Positions 3,174 through 52,815 of a stretch of 64,000 nt of DNA are shown here, one piece after another. The translations under genes and the position numbers were made by a program. This DNA is from Methylococcales bacterium. Its GTDB lineage: Bacteria > Pseudomonadota > Gammaproteobacteria > Methylococcales > Methylomonadaceae. Numbering within the stretch: position 1 is the first letter of the stretch; each line of letters begins with the position of its first letter. Below the pieces are notes generated by a model that was given only the letters and a program-made list of their open reading frames with translations, was not told the DNA's origin and ran no database searches. The DNA lies in the NCBI GenBank assembly GCA_003584875.1, contig QVQD01000200.1, positions 824 through 64,823 of the forward strand. The letters are read 5' to 3'.

Positions 3174-3251
3174 TAGGTCGGGTTAGTGACAGCGTAACCC
3201 GACATTTCGTAGCCTAATGTGTCGGGTTACGCTATCGCTAACCCGACCTAC
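3174..3251. repeat. REPIN (inverted pair of GTCGGGTTA-N9-TAACCCGAC REP elements)
   Basis: The sequence is taggtcgggttagtgacagcgtaacccgac ... gtcgggttacgctatcgctaacccgacctac. The same unit recurs at 34009, 42418, 46941 and 52737. Confidence 0.8.
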
Positions 3252-3373: not shown

Positions 3374-4291
3374 ATGTCAGATATCCATGAAGCAAATACC
3401 GCATTAGGCGATGTTGCAGCACGTACCCTTGCCAATGCAACCAAAACCGTCCCTATGCTATCAACCATCAGCCCACGTTGGTTGGTGCATTTATTACAAT
3501 GGAAACCACTAGAAGCCGGTATTTATAGAGTCAATAAAGTTAAGAATGTCGGTGATCTTCATGTTGATTGTTCTAGCCTTGATGAGAAAGAACTGCCACA
3601 AACTTTCGTTGATTATGAAGAATGGGGTCGTGAATATCGATTGAATGCAGTGAATACTGTGTTGGACGTGCATACCCGTATTTCTGATTTATATAGTAGC
3701 CCACATAACCAAATTCATGAACAACTCCGTTTAACTATAGAAACCATTAAAGAGCGTCAAGAAAGTGAGCTCATTAATAATGCTGAATATGGTTTGTTGA
3801 ACAATGTCGCACCGGGTTTTAAAGTACAACCACGTACGGGTGCGCCTACACCTGATGATATGGATGAGTTGATTTCACGCGTTTGGAAGGAGCCAGGATT
3901 TTTCTTAGCGCATCCTTTAGCGATCGCCGCTTTTGGTCGTGAATGTACTCGTCGCGGCGTGCCACCTGCTATTGTCACAATGTTTGGTTCACAATTCTTG
4001 ACTTGGCGCGGCTTACCTATCATTCCATCTGATAAGCTGAAAGTTGTTAATGGCAAAAGTAATATTTTGTTGTTACGTACCGGTGAAAGTCGTCAAGGTG
4101 TGGTAGGTCTTTATCAACCTAATTTGACTGGCGAACTTAGCATGGGACTTTCTGTGCGTTTTATGGGCATCAATCACAAAGCGATTGCCTCTTACTTAAT
4201 TTCATTGTATTGCTCAATAGCGGTGTTGACTGATGATGCGCTAGGCGTGCTCGAAAATGTCGAAGTGGGCAAGTACCATGAATACAAGTAA
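3374..4291 (+). CDS. Family 2A encapsulin shell protein (SrpI-like, HK97-fold nanocompartment)
   Basis: The 305-aa ORF contains DVAARTLANATKTVP, SPRWLVHLLQWKPLEAGIYRVNKV, DVHTRISDLYSSPHNQIHEQLRLTIE, PTPDDMDELISRVWKEP.FFLAHP.AIAAFGRECTRRGVPP and GLSVRFMGIN...SLYCSIAVLTDDAL. From memory these are near-identical in SrpI-type shells. The size implies there is no cNMP-binding insertion (2A rather than 2B). Flanking genes are cysE and an NTD-extended cysteine desulfurase. Confidence 0.85.
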   Translation: MSDIHEANTALGDVAARTLANATKTVPMLSTISPRWLVHLLQWKPLEAGIYRVNKVKNVGDLHVDCSSLDEKELPQTFVDYEEWGREYRLNAVNTVLDVHTRISDLYSSPHNQIHEQLRLTIETIKERQESELINNAEYGLLNNVAPGFKVQPRTGAPTPDDMDELISRVWKEPGFFLAHPLAIAAFGRECTRRGVPPAIVTMFGSQFLTWRGLPIIPSDKLKVVNGKSNILLLRTGESRQGVVGLYQPNLTGELSMGLSVRFMGINHKAIASYLISLYCSIAVLTDDALGVLENVEVGKYHEYK

Positions 4292-6293
4292 GGTTGAGCC
4301 GACTCATTTAGCACAGCAAGACTTTACTGAGCATGCCGCTTTACCCGATATTGAGCAAATAACAAAATTGGCTAATGAATTATTTACTGCCTTACCTTGT
4401 GATGGCTCAAGATTGGGTCAGGCCTCTAGTTTGATACCTAGTGGCTTGACGTCATCTACAGAGTCAGTGGCAAGTCAGCAGAATTTTGCTTTTCAAGGAG
4501 ATGCTGTGTTGCAAAAGTTTTTTGCAAAGTCAGCCTCTCCTTATCATCAAGTACCCGATAGTTTGGATACCAGCCCTGTATTCCCTGATAACTCAGCGAA
4601 TACCAGTGCTGGTTTAGCGAGTTTAGATAAATCTGTACTGGCAGGCATTTTACCCAATGATTTCGGCTTGCCTGATGAAGCCCAATTACAGCAATTATTG
4701 GTATCGCGTGTGTTCACTGGAAGCGGTGTTCCTAGTTTGGATGCCGTTGAACAGTTTTCTGCGCCTAGACCACAGGATTCTGATGCGCAGTTGCAAAAAT
4801 TATTTTCTGACAACGCGCCTGCAACAGAGCGTTTTTCTAGTAATGTGGCAGGTATACCAGAGCCTGCTCAGGTATATTCAGGATTTGATGCTAGCTTGAT
4901 TGCAGGGCTTTCACCTAAAGCTTATGGTCTGCCTGGTGAAGATGAGTTGCAGCAATTATTTGCAACGTCTCCAAAAACTCCTGTTAGTGCTAGTTCTGGT
5001 TCATCATTCTATTTTCTCGATGAAATCAAATCTGAAGGTTTTAATGCACCTGCGCTTAATTCGGGTCATCCGGCATTTGATGTGCAAGCGGTACGCCGTG
5101 ACTTTCCAATATTAAAGGAACGGGTTAATGGCCATCCTTTAGTTTGGTTTGACAATGCGGCCACTACACAAAAACCGCAATCAGTGATTGATAGAGTTTC
5201 GTATTTTTATGAACACGAAAATTCTAATATTCACCGTGCAGCTCATGAATTGGCGGCAAGGTCTACCGATGCTTATGAAAAAGCTAGGGATACCGTTGCG
5301 CATTTTATGAATGCCTCGTCTTCATCGGAGATAGTGTTTGCGCGTGGTACCACGGAAGCGATCAATTTAGTCGCTAAAAGTTGGGGTCAGCAAAATATCA
5401 AAGCGGGTGATGAGATCGTTGTAACTTGGTTAGAGCATCATGCCAATATTGTGCCTTGGAAACAGCTTTGTGACTTAACGGGTGCGACTTTGCGGGTAGT
5501 GCCTGTTGATGATGATGGTCAGGTGTTGTTAGGCGAATACCAAAAGTTGCTGACTGCGCGCACCAAGTTAGTGTCATTTACGCAGGTTTCTAATGCTTTA
5601 GGTACGGTTACGCCGGCTAAAGTAATGATCGACATGGCTCATCGCGTTGGCGCTAAAGTTCTGCTTGATGGCGCTCAGTCAGTGTCACATTTACGTGTGG
5701 ATGTTCAGGCGTTGGATTGTGATTGGTTTGTGTTCTCTGGACATAAAATCTTTGGTCCTACTGGTATTGGTGTGTTGTATGGTAAAGCCGTGTTATTGGA
5801 ATCCATGCCACCTTGGCAAGGCGGCGGCAATATGATTGAAGATGTGACTTTTGATAAAATCATCTATCAACCTGTGCCCGCTCGTTTTGAAGCCGGTACT
5901 GGCAATATCGCTGATGCAGTCGGTTTAGGCGCTGCTTTGGAATACGTGTCAAAAATAGGTATCGATAATATCGCCCGTTATGAACATGAATTGCTGGTGT
6001 ATGCGATGGAGGCACTGCGCAGTATTTCTGGCTTACGTTTGATTGGTACAGCGGCAGAAAAAACCAGTGTCTTATCTTTCGTGCTAGCAGGGCATAGCAA
6101 TCAAGATATCGGTGTCGCTTTAAACCGAGTGGGTATTGCTGTTCGTACTGGACACCATTGCGCACAACCGATTTTGCGTCGTTTTGGTCTAGAAAGCACA
6201 GTACGTCCCTCCTTAGCGTTTTACAACACTCACGACGAAGTTGATTTGCTCGTTAGTACAGTAAGACGCATTCAAAGCGGTAAGGATTTTTAG
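4257..6293 (+). CDS. Encapsulin cargo: SufS-like (class V) cysteine desulfurase with a ~270-aa disordered N-terminal loading domain; alternative start at ATG 4278
   Basis: The C-terminal ~400 aa has WFDNAATTQKP, HRAAHELA, the PLP lysine in FSGHKIFGPTGIGVLYG and the catalytic Cys in RTGHHCAQP. The N-terminal 270 aa is rich in P/S/A/Q/L, contains a KLANELF motif and has internal duplications. The ORF overlaps the shell gene stop by 14-35 nt. Confidence 0.85.
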   Translation: MSKWASTMNTSKVEPTHLAQQDFTEHAALPDIEQITKLANELFTALPCDGSRLGQASSLIPSGLTSSTESVASQQNFAFQGDAVLQKFFAKSASPYHQVPDSLDTSPVFPDNSANTSAGLASLDKSVLAGILPNDFGLPDEAQLQQLLVSRVFTGSGVPSLDAVEQFSAPRPQDSDAQLQKLFSDNAPATERFSSNVAGIPEPAQVYSGFDASLIAGLSPKAYGLPGEDELQQLFATSPKTPVSASSGSSFYFLDEIKSEGFNAPALNSGHPAFDVQAVRRDFPILKERVNGHPLVWFDNAATTQKPQSVIDRVSYFYEHENSNIHRAAHELAARSTDAYEKARDTVAHFMNASSSSEIVFARGTTEAINLVAKSWGQQNIKAGDEIVVTWLEHHANIVPWKQLCDLTGATLRVVPVDDDGQVLLGEYQKLLTARTKLVSFTQVSNALGTVTPAKVMIDMAHRVGAKVLLDGAQSVSHLRVDVQALDCDWFVFSGHKIFGPTGIGVLYGKAVLLESMPPWQGGGNMIEDVTFDKIIYQPVPARFEAGTGNIADAVGLGAALEYVSKIGIDNIARYEHELLVYAMEALRSISGLRLIGTAAEKTSVLSFVLAGHSNQDIGVALNRVGIAVRTGHHCAQPILRRFGLESTVRPSLAFYNTHDEVDLLVSTVRRIQSGKDF

Positions 6294-6307: not shown

Positions 6308-6332
6308 ATCGGGCACAGTTTGTGTGCCCGAT
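6308..6332 (+). terminator. Terminator-like hairpin after the desulfurase gene (ATCGGGCAC-N7-GTGCCCGAT, no U tract)
   Basis: Perfect 9-bp stem 15 nt after the stop codon. The lack of a T-run lowers confidence. Confidence 0.4.
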
Positions 6333-6401
6333 ATAGAGCATCAAGTATATATTTGCTAGCTCTGCTAATAAACCACTTATGCTAGCCAATGAAGCGCTTC
6401 A

Positions 6402-6611
6402 ATACAGGAATATAGGTTCAGCATACCAGTTTCTATAGTTCCGATACGGGAATTTCAGTCTGTGATACCGGAATGGATATTCTCGATACAGGATTAAGAC
6501 TTCGTTATACCAGAATCAATGGTTGAAGTATGGGGATTAGTATTCGACATACAAGAATCGATGGCGTCAATACAGGAATCAAAGCTCGTAATACAGGGTT
6601 TAGAGACTGTG
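6402..6611. repeat. Array of 10 direct repeats with exact 21-bp phasing; each unit has a conserved 10-nt core ATAC[ACG][AG]GAAT and an 11-nt variable segment
   Basis: Cores start at 6402, 6423, 6444, 6465, 6486, 6507, 6528 (degenerate), 6549, 6570 and 6591. Confidence 0.85.
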
Positions 6612-6695
6612 AAAGTATATTTGTGGGAGAGGCTTTAGCTTTGAATCCAAAGCTAAAATGAAAATCGCATTATCGTTATATGTCACTCCGGAGGG

Positions 6696-6896
6696 CATAG
6701 GTATCTACACAAGTTTCTTATCGGCGTGGAAACGATAAAAAACACCGTAGGGGCGTATTGCATACGCCCAACATCGACAGTCCATTGTTATAGAGCTTAT
6801 TTTATAAGGGCGTATGCAATACGCCCCTACGATCTTTACCACAATGTTATCGTTCTCGCCTGGGAATGCTAACAATTAATTGTGCAGATACCTATG
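6696..6896. mobile_element. MITE-like element, copy A (201 bp; 17-bp TIR CATAGGTATCTACACAA; internal GTAGGGGCGTATTGCATACGCCC REPIN)
   Basis: The terminal inverted repeats and nearly the whole element are self-complementary. Near-identical copies are at 6906-7107 and 45144-45344. Confidence 0.75.
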
Positions 6897-6905
6897 GCTA
6901 AAGAG

Positions 6906-7107
6906 CATAGGTATCTAAACAGGTTTCTTATCGGCGTGGAAACGATAAAAAACACCGTAGGGGCGTATTGCATACGCACATTTAATGAAAGTCTATATGT
7001 TATAGAGCATATTTTATAAGGGCGTATGCAATACGCCCCTACGATCTTCACCACAATGTTTTCGTTCTCGCGTGGGAATGCTAACCATTATTTTTTAGAT
7101 ACCTATG
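6906..7107. mobile_element. MITE-like element, copy B, in tandem with copy A (9-bp spacer)
   Basis: Same architecture as copy A with a few substitutions. The ORFs at 6869-7054(-) and 7026-7223(+) lie inside the repeats. Confidence 0.75.
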
Positions 7108-7219: not shown

Positions 7220-8050
7220 CTAATTAGATGGGTCTTCATAAAAAGATCCTTGCACAAGATTAAAGCCGGTGCTTTCTGCTAGTTTTGCATCGCTATCTTG
7301 ATCAATCTGCAATAGGATGCTTTGTCCTCCGTCTATTTCAATTCGTGCATTTAAATCACGTAATTTTTTAGCTAAAGTTTCATCGCTTTGTTGATGAAGC
7401 GATTTAGCCGATAAGCTAACATAATAGGGTGATAGCTGGGTAATAAGATCAAACGATTGTTTATCCTGTGCGACATAATCAAACTTGAGCGCAATTTTAT
7501 AACCACGAATCCGGTAATTTAGGAGTCCAGCAATGAGGGCAGGATAGTGTTTGGCATAAGGACTACTGACAGTCATAGTAATGACGATGTTTTTGGTTTC
7601 TAAGCCGCAATGGTTGATCACTTCTTCAAAATAAGCGCCGTGATCTTTTTTAATGCCGAGTATGTGGCGTGGATCAACTTCAAGAAATAATGAGTTCTGT
7701 AAATGTGTTAGAGGTAAATAATTAAGCATGTGCGTAGTGCGAGATAAGCGATCAAAATCAATAATTGATTCGAAATTATTATCTTGATGAGCTCGATGAC
7801 TTAGTAAGTTTTCTATCTCGTCTGAATACAGGTATTGAACTTCATGAGTTGATACCTTGAGTTTGGCAGCATGGCCGATAATTTCATTAGGCTTTTGAGC
7901 AAGGCGTATGGGTAAAAAGAGACTGCTGATTTTGATTTGTCCAAAGAGAGTGCTGATCACTTGATTTTCTAGTAGAAAAGGGCGAAAACTCGAGTGATGT
8001 TCCTGTCCAAAGCGGTCGTTAAAATAATCAGCTAAATTTTGTAAGGGCAT
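7220..8050 (-). CDS. Stand-alone degenerate EAL-like domain protein (catalytic motifs lost)
   Basis: Colinear with EAL landmarks but diverged at each one. LPI..IIGHAAKL stands for QPI..GxEALxR, LFLEV for the VN.S strand, ITMTV for ExTE, GYKIALKFDY for G..ALDDFG, and a C-terminal FNLVQGSFYEDP for QGYxFxxP. Confidence 0.5.
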   Translation of the reverse strand: MPLQNLADYFNDRFGQEHHSSFRPFLLENQVISTLFGQIKISSLFLPIRLAQKPNEIIGHAAKLKVSTHEVQYLYSDEIENLLSHRAHQDNNFESIIDFDRLSRTTHMLNYLPLTHLQNSLFLEVDPRHILGIKKDHGAYFEEVINHCGLETKNIVITMTVSSPYAKHYPALIAGLLNYRIRGYKIALKFDYVAQDKQSFDLITQLSPYYVSLSAKSLHQQSDETLAKKLRDLNARIEIDGGQSILLQIDQDSDAKLAESTGFNLVQGSFYEDPSN

Positions 8051-8637: not shown

Positions 8638-8790
8638 ATGTCATTTAAATTCTCTAAATTAGCGTTGTTAACGACTTGCTTATTATTAATAGCTTGTGGA
8701 CAGCCGGGTCCTTTATATATGCCAGATAAACCTGCGCCTATTTATGTGCCTCCTGAGCCGCAATCACCACCGACTGATAAAAATAAATAA
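8638..8790 (+). CDS. lptM: Small lipoprotein LptM (YifL family), 50 aa; below the ORF-track size cutoff
   Basis: Translation is MSFKFSKLALLTTCLLLIACGQPGPLYMPDKPAPIYVPPEP.., with a lipobox LIAC followed by the GPLY.P motif. It occupies the conserved position directly upstream of lysA-dapF-yigA-xerC. Confidence 0.65.
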   Translation: MSFKFSKLALLTTCLLLIACGQPGPLYMPDKPAPIYVPPEPQSPPTDKNK

Positions 8791-8792
8791 AT

Positions 8793-10041
8793 ATGGATTT
8801 TTTTAATTACCGCAACAACGAGCTTTATGCCGAAGATGTGGCTGTGCAAGACATTTGTACTCAATATGGCAGCCCTTGTTATATCTATTCAAGAGCCACC
8901 TTGGAGCGACATTGGTTAGCTTTTGATCGGGCTTTTACGGGTCATGCTCATTTGATTTGTTATGCCGTAAAAGCCAATTCAAATATTGCGCTGCTTAATG
9001 TTTTAGCTCGCTTAGGTTCTGGCTTTGATATCGTTTCTTTAGGTGAGTTACAGCGAGTACTAGCTGCAGGTGGCGACCCTAAGAAAATTGTATTTTCTGG
9101 GGTAGGTAAGCGTGAAGATGAGATTTTAGCAGCCTTAAAAATAGGCATACGTTGCTTTAATGTAGAAGTGATCGATGAACTGGATAGAATCAATAGACTC
9201 GCTGGTGAGCTGGGTGTGATTGCTCCGGTTTCTTTTCGAGTGAATCCAGATGTCGATGCCAATACCCATCCTTATATTTCTACCGGCTTAAAGGAAAATA
9301 AATTTGGTATCGATATTACCCTAGCATTGGCTGAATATAAACGCGCTACACAGATGTCGAATATTGAGGTGGTCGGTATCGATTGTCATATTGGTTCTCA
9401 ATTGACAGAAACACGACCCTTTTTAGATGCCTTGGATAAAGTGCTTGATTTAGTCTCTGCACTAAAAGCTGAGGGTATAGACTTAAAGCATTTGGATTTG
9501 GGGGGGTGGCTTAGGTATTCGTTATAACGACGAGCAGCCGCCGGAGCCTGCTGATTATATTGCTGCGGTTTTAGAACGCTTGGGCGAGACTGATTTTGAG
9601 ATTTTATTGGAGCCAGGACGTGCAATTGTCGGTAATGCCGGTATTTTAGTAACCCAAGTTGAATATCTAAAACCTACCGAGCATAAGAACTTTGCTATTG
9701 TTGATGCGGCTATGAATGATCTGGTTCGTCCCTCATTATATAGTGCATGGCAGGCGATTATTCCAGTTAAGCTTGAAAGTGATGCTCCTGAGTTGCAATG
9801 GGATATTGTTGGCCCAGTTTGTGAAACCGGTGATTTCCTAGGTAAGAATCGTGCTCTTAAGTTGGCAGTTGGCGATTTGTTGGCGATACGCTCATCGGGT
9901 GCTTATGGCTTTTCTATGAGCTCTAATTATAACTCTAGACCTAGAGTGCCTGAACTTATGGTTGATGGTGATCAGACCTATTTAATCAGAGAAAGAGAAA
10001 GCATTGAGCAACTTTGGTCTGGTGAGCATTTATTGCCATGA
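8793..10041 (+). pseudogene. lysA: Diaminopimelate decarboxylase LysA, reading frame broken by one extra G in a G7 run (9500-9506); possibly a homopolymer sequencing error
   Basis: ORFs 8793-9527 and 9580-10041 are the N- and C-terminal parts of one LysA (YAVKANS PLP site; EPGRAIVGNAG; CETGD). With six Gs the text reads DLGGGLGIRYNDEQPPEPADYIAAVLERLGETDFEILLEPGRA, which joins the two parts. Confidence 0.9.
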
Positions 10042-13998: not shown

Positions 13999-14078
13999 CA
14001 CCGTAGGGGCGTATTGCATACGCCCTTATAAAAGTAGGGGCGTATTGCATACGCCCTTATAAAATAAGCTCTATTACA
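13999..14078. repeat. Rearranged fragment of the 201-bp MITE (two direct GTAGGGGCGTATTGCATACGCCC REPs plus part of the central region)
   Basis: The sequence caccgtaggggcgtattgcatacgcccttataaaa gtaggggcgtattgcatacgcccttataaaataagctctat matches the MITE's interior. Confidence 0.6.
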
Positions 14079-14161
14079 TTAACTTTCCTAAATGGGTTTA
14101 GCTTATTTGCCACTGAAGATAAATTTCTTTTCCCCAGTCTGTAACTTAAAAGCGGGGATAT

Positions 14162-33856: not shown

Positions 33857-34008
33857 GTATTGAGATTCAATGTTATTTGCGGCAGGTTAATGATAGATTA
33901 TCATAATAATGTTGATTGAGTAGTTGCTAGAGTTATTCGTTTAATTATGGGTTTTTGAATCCAAATAATGTGCAAAGCTAAAGCTGTTCGATATTAGTAA
34001 GCTATTTT

Positions 34009-45079: not shown

Positions 45080-45143
45080 AAAGGACAATAAATCTACATA
45101 GATTCTGTAAATGTCGGGACAGGTTGCGCACTGTCCCACAGGG

Positions 45144-45344
45144 CATAGGTATCTACACAAGTTTCTTATCGGCGTGGAAACGATAAAAATCACCGTAGGG
45201 GCGTATTGCATACGCCCAACATTGAAAGTCCAATGTTATAGAGCTTATTTTATAAGGGCGTATGCAATACGCCCCTACGATCTTCACCACAAAGTTATCG
45301 TTCGCGCGTGGAAATGCTAACAATTAATTGTGTAGATATCTATG
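45144..45344. mobile_element. MITE-like element, copy C (201 bp)
   Basis: Near-identical to 6696-6896. The track ORF 45111-45320 lies inside it. Confidence 0.75.
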
Positions 45345-45461
45345 CCCTTAAGGTAAGCATAGTGAGGGCTCTTTAGATTTTAAAAGTAAGTGATTTGTAG
45401 GGGCGATAGATTCGCCCAGTACATTCGTCTTTTGAAACGTGGCGAAGCTGCCACCCTAAAG

Positions 45462-46906: not shown

Positions 46907-46940
46907 ATATGACTAGCAACTAAATGCGCGAAAATATTGT

Positions 46941-47014
46941 GTAGTTCGGGTTAGCGATAGCGTAACCCGACACATTACGATTATTTCGGGTTACGCTATC
47001 GCTAACCCGACCAC
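46941..47014. repeat. REPIN (inverted pair of the GTCGGGTTA..TAACCCGAC REP)
   Basis: The sequence is gtagttcgggttagcgatagcgtaacccgac ... ttcgggttacgctatcgctaacccgacc. Confidence 0.8.
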
Positions 47015-47050
47015 CTAAAAACTTACACATGATAATTAACCTTTCGTGGA

Positions 47051-52736: not shown

Positions 52737-52815
52737 GTAGGTCGGGTTAGCGATAGCGTAACCCGACTTTTCGTTGGTGATTTTGTCGGGTTACCCTATC
52801 GCTAACCCAACCTAC
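52737..52815. repeat. REPIN (inverted REP pair)
   Basis: The sequence is gtaggtcgggttagcgatagcgtaacccgac ... gtcgggttaccctatcgctaacccaacctac. Confidence 0.8.

Follow-up and report, generated by a model that had tools for sequence, protein, structure and literature searches.

CsrB/RsmZ-type decoy RNAs titrate CsrA-type dimers and thereby relieve repression, and GGA is the essential determinant of a CsrA site. Untranslated regions of messenger RNAs can also titrate CsrA, the Salmonella fim 5' untranslated region being an example. Methylococcales encode CsrA, and their csrA transcript level responds to methane supply (PMC10466089). No Csr/Rsm decoy RNA reported for this order was found in Rfam or in the literature searched. 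Here, we analysed a 64,000-nt stretch of DNA from a Methylococcales methanotroph (contig QVQD01000200.1, positions 824 to 64,823; hereafter the window). It has a G+C content of 40%, its proteins find their closest named matches in metagenome-assembled genomes of Methylococcales and Methylobacter, and at 6402..6611 on the + strand it carries a tandem array of ten 21-nt units, each with a core of 10 nt (ATACNRGNWT) and a diverged spacer of 11 nt. We found that this array belongs to a lineage-specific, selected and strictly phased repeat family with no counterpart in Rfam or the literature searched. Tentatively, and with somewhat less than even confidence, we favour the reading that its G-rich strand would be transcribed and act as a multivalent CsrA decoy RNA.

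A sequence-only reading of the window had described ten 21-bp direct repeats with a conserved core, a near-unique spacer and a register that never slips, and this description held. All units were reproduced exactly in a 21-step layout, and the mean pairwise identity among them was 0.75 in the core (10 nt) versus 0.33, close to random, in the spacer (11 nt). The G-rich strand of the array is the + strand. The core, written out as ATAC[ACG][AG]G[AGT][AT]T, fits nine of the ten units, the exception being unit 7 (GTATGGGGAT); no variation is seen in columns 2, 3, 7 and 10, and 9/10 units agree in columns 1 and 4. On the + strand of the 64 kb, 11 sites fit the looser pattern ATAC.[AG]G.[AT]T, nine of them inside the array, and the - strand has five. 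By a rough estimate from base composition, the frequency of this pattern outside the array is about that expected by chance, indicating that the phased cluster is not a chance event. The same reading had seen nothing else like the array in the window, and we likewise found no second array of this kind in the 64 kb. It had also placed the array directly behind an encapsulin operon, and in an SrpI-type encapsulin operon the cysteine desulfurase gene indeed ends at 6293, its stop codon lying 108 nt ahead of the array start. Tandem Repeats Finder, run down to a score of 30, did not report the window array because its spacers are too diverged. Ahead of the array and in phase with it, at 6360..6401 on the + strand, two stretches (CTCTGCTAAT.. 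and GCTAGCCAAT GAAGCGCTTCA; ..CTAAT, ..CCAAT), compared by eye, are weak candidates for degenerate units; by manual count, the spacer of the second matches the A-class spacer GGAGCGTTCTA of related arrays at 7/11 positions.

To find related arrays, one genome per species was scanned with a three-core pattern and metagenome contigs with a four-core pattern, and family members were picked by ranking the matches on spacer identity; the counts given here are among the matches listed. Among these, all named carriers of the contrast between core (about 0.75) and spacer (0.33-0.50) are Methylococcales, and the repeat family to which the window array belongs is restricted to this order. At least eight arrays with about 70 units were found at three kinds of locus, and throughout them the register never slips and no indel occurs. 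Type A arrays (loci L008, L047, L116, L184 and L221, of which L116 is a Crenothrix polyspora metagenome-assembled genome, MAG) have 8-11 units and lie about 100 nt upstream of a co-oriented gene for a 201-aa protein at all five loci, the gene being mostly deleted in L184. Type B arrays (L024, 5 units; L186, 7 units) lie between csrA and a TonB-dependent receptor gene, and type C is the window copy. L008 (type A) and L024 (type B) come from the same MAG, indicating that a genome can hold several copies. The sequence-only reading had proposed a search for related arrays and their companion genes; the matches listed include arrays in Methylococcales, and no DNA-binding gene is consistently co-located with them. 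No family member was found in the viral contigs scanned. Homology among the upstream regions of the three array types was not significant, one marginal alignment reaching a z of about 2. Most of the listed matches came from unrelated phyla (Limnohabitans, Chitinophagaceae, Ekhidna and Methanosarcina); they were ordinary tandem repeats with conserved spacers and were treated as chance. A Chitinophagaceae MAG (L120, 2237-2467) carries an 11-unit, 21-bp array (ATAYAGGAWT + TAnnnnTTCYT) with partly variable spacers, a superficial likeness to the Methylococcales arrays in an unrelated phylum.

We then compared conservation column by column. Among 70 pooled units, A occupies column 1 in 67/70, T column 2 in 69/70, A column 3 in 69/70, C column 4 in 66/70, G column 7 in 65/70 and T column 10 in 70/70. 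The units fall into an A class, ATACGGG(A/G)ATG...TTCT, and a T class, ATACnnGGTTCAGnGTTCAT (ATACnnGGTT), which alternate strictly in types A and B, where copy number differs by 42 bp. In the window array the classes follow one another as A T A A T A A A A T, with spacers more diverged than those of types A and B. Across four orthologous type A arrays, conservation is 100% in columns 1-4 and 10 but just 11% in column 6, and the spacers are conserved at 61% versus 63% for the upstream flank. Because the core columns are conserved while the spacers drift like flanks, selection holds ATAC, G7, T10 and the register, not the spacers. These results indicate that selection maintains both the contrast between core and spacer and the fixed register, neither of which is an artefact.

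The same site was then examined in relatives. In L001, whose desulfurase is identical, the array is identical to that of the window, and L262-L264 (98-99% in the desulfurase gene) each have ten units with 11 substitutions in total, ten of which fall in columns 5, 6, 13-16, 20 and 21 and one of which hits G7. All five haplotypes (window, L001 and L262-L264), which are 0-4% apart, have ten units, with no change in copy number. Relatives at 93% (L002) and 87% (L003 and L004) were found to have no array at the corresponding position, and syntenic comparison did not extend the array beyond relatives at about 98%. These three keep a palindrome located at 6313-6340 of the window, behind which they have a restriction/toxin-antitoxin islet or a fatty-acid hydroxylase gene; the palindrome is therefore part of the end of the operon rather than of the array. 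The array is stable within its lineage, yet it is no ancestral part of the encapsulin operon.

Such a distribution raises the question of whether the array has any cellular function or is a decaying or self-propagating minisatellite whose core is homogenised by gene conversion or by its mode of expansion. The sequence-only reading had named absence or length variation in close relatives, with no associated protein, as the mark of a neutral repeat; the array is indeed absent at 93% and 87%, but it has ten units in all close haplotypes. The minisatellite explanation is also in keeping with the variable region, which adjoins insertions resembling miniature inverted-repeat transposable elements (MITEs), and with the fact that no common function has been established for the three loci. 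Against it, decay is not uniform (core 0.75, spacer 0.33) and is confined to the spacers and columns 5, 6 and 8. Orthologous arrays of different genomes differ in their spacers and flanks but never in ATAC or T10, substitutions among the five haplotypes fall mostly in variable columns, and there are no indels despite saturated spacers. The contrast in decay and the constant copy number led us to reject a neutral minisatellite, which we consider improbable.

The likeness of the core to a CsrA site was noted before a search for csrA was run as a test. The CsrA consensus obtained by systematic evolution of ligands by exponential enrichment is RUACARGGAUGU (PMC4347634). Compared in register with this consensus, the ten window units match at 10, 8, 9, 9, 8, 8, 8, 9, 9 and 9 of 12 positions, against a background in which 0.7% of window 12-mers score >=8, and some type B units (ATACAGGGATGA) score 11/12. 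The six near-invariant array positions (A1, U2, A3, C4, G7 and U10) all coincide with consensus positions. Searching the loci then collected with E. coli CsrA by tblastn revealed csrA only in L186 and L024, where it lies about 500 nt from the type B array and is divergently transcribed (original coordinates of csrA and array: L186, 3880-4059 and 4557-4703; L024, 6571-6750 and 5969-6073). The csrA of L186 and L024 is 85% identical to E. coli CsrA and is followed in the type B lineage by three transfer RNA genes; csrA is widespread in Methylococcales and does not lie inside the 64-kb window. We estimate the probability of the array-csrA adjacency arising by chance at about 0.002, counting three loci with about six neighbouring genes among about 4000. 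Over the 200 nt upstream of csrA, conservation is about as high as in csrA itself; this stretch contains two GGA sites, UGGAUG and the Shine-Dalgarno sequence AGGGAG, an arrangement typical of CsrA autoregulation.

The strand and the spacing of the sites are also consistent with a CsrA decoy. In 8/8 arrays GGA is concentrated on the G-rich strand, with 3-7 occurrences versus 0-1 on the other strand. One CsrA dimer bridges two sites 10-63 nt apart, with an optimum above 18 nt (PMC7652899), and the 21-nt spacing suits such bridging since it lies within this range. The arrays fold no better than shuffled sequence, and the folding z-score of -3.4 for the window + strand is partly due to a downstream hairpin. 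No stable or covarying RNA fold and no conserved helix was found, either globally or within units. The predicted unpaired fraction is 0.45-0.57 in cores versus 0.22-0.38 in spacers. For a core-spacer stem in A-class units, the mean was 3.9 against a null of 2.9 with G.U pairs allowed and 2.5 against 2.1 with Watson-Crick pairs only, the units being non-independent in both comparisons. Alignment of L186 and L024 revealed a conserved block of 135 nt with a TATACT -10-like element, followed by the array, and conservation collapses past the array end, as would be expected for a short RNA gene. In the window, a 10-bp A+U-rich hairpin at 6634..6657 on the + strand (TTTAGCTTTG AATC CAAAGCTAAA), 22 nt beyond the last unit and with no U-tract after it, is possibly the 3' stem of the predicted array transcript. 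In L262-L264 a single A-to-G substitution in this hairpin gives a U.G pair, which is compatible with + strand RNA only. Logan contig ends, considered as evidence for transcript ends, were ruled out because both ends fall in repeated elements.

In the mechanism that we propose, the + strand would be transcribed either at the 3' end of the encapsulin/cysteine-desulfurase transcript or immediately behind it, and the unstructured RNA would carry a near-consensus CsrA site at the head of each 21-nt unit. If one CsrA dimer bridges each pair of neighbouring sites 21 nt apart, the array RNA could soak up several dimers, and CsrA repression elsewhere would be relieved. We infer all three steps, namely transcription of the array, CsrA binding and the regulatory effect.

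A number of observations weigh against a CsrA decoy, and most of them concern GGA. Only 6/10 window cores contain it, and the T class (ATACnnGGTT), about half of all units, has GGU in its place. Enrichment of GGA is modest or nil, with 7 observed versus 3.8 expected in the window and 3 versus 3.0 in L221, and GGA density is higher in CsrB/RsmZ than in the arrays. Among orthologous arrays, the lowest conservation (11%) is found in column 6, on which the presence of GGA depends, and ATAC is 100% conserved, indicating that selection acts on ATAC, G7 and T10 rather than on GGA. The exact register is not required by CsrA binding, yet it never slips. In the native csrA leaders the sites are UGGAUG and AGGGAG and not of the AUAC type. 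The csrA loci of other Methylococcales have no array, and the adjacency is limited to one lineage. Upstream, the best matches to a GacA/UvrY box (TGTAAG-N6-CTTACA) have 3-4 mismatches, which is background, although the order's own box may differ. Promoter and terminator searches gave only weak promoter-like elements and no intrinsic terminator. Rfam 15 gave no match for the region, either at gathering thresholds or at E<=10, and none at gathering thresholds for the related loci. Finally, the array is dispensable at this site in the 93% and 87% relatives.

The strict register is the best argument for a role at the level of DNA. Sites every 21 bp are two helical turns apart, so that all cores lie on one face of the helix, and a protein binding the 10-bp core on double-stranded DNA could polymerise along these sites or wrap the DNA in the manner of iterons or ParR/ParG centromeres, forming a nucleoprotein structure with a role in regulating neighbouring genes or in organising the DNA. 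The exact period without an indel in about 70 units of eight arrays, despite near-random spacers, is what this explanation expects, since cooperative DNA binding predicts that phasing is kept through saturating spacer divergence. Copy number changes only by 42-bp steps, the conserved ATAC, G7 and T10 are not what CsrA needs most, and types A and B lie in long intergenic regions beside gene starts. The genomic contexts fit this explanation less well. The three contexts annotated contain no rep or par gene and no recurrent co-located DNA-binding gene, and the neighbours vary from VapBC with a CysB-like regulator through an 85-aa open reading frame (ORF) and csrA with transfer RNA genes to the encapsulin operon. 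Every context is chromosomal (lysA-dapF-xerC synteny), and no isolated core sites above chance precede other genes in the 64 kb, as a regulon would leave. The window copy has a convergent gene end on each side and no evident target for regulation. DNA binding would also not account for the strong strand asymmetry or for the position of csrA beside one array type, and the weak core-spacer complementarity of the A class needs G.U pairs, which only RNA offers. Inspection by eye gave no convincing sigma-54 promoter or ArgR, TorR, Fur or LysR-type box. Overall, we rank DNA binding second, as the main rival of the decoy reading, and regard it as rather unlikely.

The sequence-only reading had pointed to iterons, a ParR/ParG-type centromere or cooperative regulator binding and had itself seen no rep or par gene nearby. 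The latter observation holds in all three genomic contexts; the iteron or centromere interpretation is not supported, as every context is chromosomal, rep and par genes are missing and no array was found in the viral contigs. A transcribed, protein-binding RNA related to CsrA decoys would fit the motif and the one genomic association better. A scaffold that is neither decoy nor iteron was also considered, in which a Methylococcales protein would read AUAC..G..U every 21 nt on strictly phased RNA or DNA and form a filament or ring, its target having spread to several loci, among them sites beside csrA, ahead of the gene for a clade-specific fibronectin type III-domain protein and behind the sulfur-starvation encapsulin operon. 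We consider this unlikely.

We next asked whether the repeats encode, or once encoded, a protein. The sequence-only reading had offered a decayed 7-codon repeat as an alternative, and its minus-strand translation with two stops was correct; the claim that this was the best frame was wrong, as the + frame from column 1 has one stop. In type A, the minus strand could encode a repeat protein (14-aa ..EPxIRTLHSRMxNx..), since this frame is open in 4/5 arrays with the same stop in those four, L008 having an internal stop. Variability among orthologues shows a three-base rhythm (columns 6, 15 and 21 most variable), and the ratio of nonsynonymous to synonymous differences (pN/pS) is about 0.5 in this open frame. 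However, a pN/pS of 0.5 was also obtained in the stop-filled + frame, the type A start codon is not conserved, and the frame open in type A is closed in types B and C. Every frame of the window array contains stops (1, 6 and 2 on the + strand; 6, 2 and 3 on the - strand), and neither of the two frames in which stops are few begins with a start codon at the array head. Invariant bases (A3, T2) fall on third codon positions, and the first positions of these codons vary freely (C/S/R/G or D/N/H/Y). A HMMER search with the 43-aa ORF against 1.84 billion representative proteins returned only itself and two unrelated repeat proteins. A coding origin was rejected on the stops in all six window frames, the wrong codon-position conservation and the absence of a homologous repeat protein, and we consider it most improbable. 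The open minus-strand frame, located at L116 2380-2601 and in other type A arrays, is probably not a gene.

The position of type A arrays suggested a further comparison. Type III toxin-antitoxin systems are laid out as promoter, tandem repeats, attenuator and protein gene. The repeat RNA might accordingly be the partner of the 201-aa protein, with the window copy as an orphan array. The five type A arrays about 100 nt upstream of the co-oriented gene are arranged in this way, and a non-coding leader of 600-750 nt accompanies the gene into different neighbourhoods. Moreover, the 4.5-5.5 double units of 42 nt resemble, in number and size, the repeats of ToxI as known from ToxIN, and a T6 run separates array and gene in L116, L221 and L047. 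The protein itself argues against this arrangement. It has no significant match in Pfam, PADLOC, NCBIfam or PHROG, and its confidently predicted fold (predicted local distance difference test score 88) combines a long helical hairpin with a fibronectin-III-like sandwich and does not resemble a nuclease of the ToxN/AbiQ type. The distant homologues L243 and L244 have neither array nor core motif in their leaders, no 201-aa gene lies near types B and C (tblastn of the window found none), and the terminator scan was negative. We consider such a partnership of array RNA and 201-aa protein very improbable. We found 167 members of the 201-aa family, all annotated as hypothetical, and all named carriers are Methylococcales. 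The protein was also considered as a binding partner of the array and set aside, as its predicted fold does not have the look of a nucleic-acid-binding protein. GGA-rich or core-containing leaders among its distant homologues were not supported.

Turning to the neighbourhood of the window copy, the operon ahead of it contains an SrpI-type family 2A encapsulin gene (3374-4291) and the gene of the cargo, cysteine desulfurase (4257-6293). Upstream of the encapsulin gene lies a hexapeptide-repeat transferase gene for which Pfam gives the Hexapep repeat only; by analogy with the Synechococcus srp operon, it possibly encodes a serine acetyltransferase. The G+C-rich palindrome at 6313..6340 on the + strand (ATCGGGCACA GTTT GTGTGCCCGAT) stands just past the desulfurase stop and has no T-run in this lineage. 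Right behind the array, at 6695-7107, is a tandem pair of a 212-bp MITE-like element. This element (about 210 bp) has long inverted repeats (GTAGGGGCGTATTGCATACGCCC ... GGGCGTATGCAATACGCCCCTAC); a third window copy lies at 45140-45346 and a fragment at 14002-14094, and it is also present in the Methylococcaceae MAG L008. Next comes the 3' end of a weakly EAL-like gene (7220-8050, - strand), and beyond it lysA, dapF, a DUF484 gene and a XerC-like integrase gene. With the desulfurase gene on one side and the minus-strand EAL-like gene on the other, the window array thus lies on the chromosome between two convergent gene ends.

Several further features of these regions were observed. In the window, lysA (8793-10041) is split into ORFs at 8793-9527 and 9580-10041 by an extra G at 9494-9500, a run of G7 compared with G6 in the near-identical L001, where lysA is intact (415 aa); the two explanations are a sequencing error in the homopolymer and a very recent frameshift. 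Directly 5' of lysA, an ORF of 50-52 aa (window 8638-8790) is conserved in L001-L004. A second palindromic repeat family (GGTCGGGTTAGTGACAGCGTAACCCGAC ...) is present at 3174-3250, between the hexapeptide-repeat transferase and encapsulin genes, with related copies near 33994, 42419, 46931-47022 and 52737-52815, and short-read contigs of related strains break at this repeat. The type B loci share a perfect palindrome of 18 bp, GTGTGGCATATGCCACAC, about 100 nt ahead of the TonB-dependent receptor gene (L186 4910-4927, with a matching site in L024); it could be an operator or a minus-strand terminator. The type A arrays of L047, L116 and L221 adjoin a CysB-family LysR gene and vapBC (L047 1-2844, L116 258-1926 and L221 reverse-complement 227-1895); in L047 a gene that is likely to encode a sulfate-transport ATPase, judged by the look of its sequence only, lies upstream. 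The TonB-receptor/encapsulin gene cluster of L002 likewise begins with a LysR gene. A link with sulfur regulation is possible.

If the arrays are CsrA antagonists, they would give access to the control of carbon storage and lifestyle in methanotrophs of environmental importance and would show that strict tandem periodicity is a workable design for a decoy RNA. The copy behind the encapsulin/cysteine-desulfurase operon would then link gene expression under sulfur starvation to post-transcriptional control at the global level. Should the arrays instead work at the level of DNA, they would point to a chromosomal protein that polymerises on sites phased at two turns. In either case, the family is a compact and easily testable element, with 210 bp and a clear motif.

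Compared with known systems, the arrays share with iterons, ParR sites (parC) and ParG/omega centromeres the direct repeats with conserved core and variable spacer, the period of about two turns and the roughly ten copies; they differ in having no rep or par gene, in their chromosomal position at three unrelated loci and in their strong strand asymmetry. An AT-rich unwinding element or DnaA boxes were not noticed either, although no search aimed at them was made. Type A resembles ToxI, AntiQ and CptI in that a tandem array lies directly upstream of a co-oriented gene for a protein of about 200 aa. The 201-aa protein, however, is unrelated to ToxN/AbiQ/CptN/TenpN by sequence or predicted fold, the window array has no downstream gene, and no attenuating terminator was detected. 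Like the untranslated regions of messenger RNAs that titrate CsrA, the arrays occur in a long leader (type A) or behind an operon (window); the known cases have few, irregular sites, whereas the arrays are phased. Relative to CsrB/CsrC and RsmX/Y/Z, whose sites are irregularly spaced, the arrays are strictly periodic (21 nt) and conserve AUAC..G..U rather than GGA, with GGU in half of the units and a lower GGA density, and they come without a detected GacA/UvrY box, terminator or Rfam match. What they have in common with these decoys is a non-coding, repeated CsrA-like motif on one strand with little structure, present at several loci per genome in a host clade that has CsrA, and in one array type beside csrA itself.

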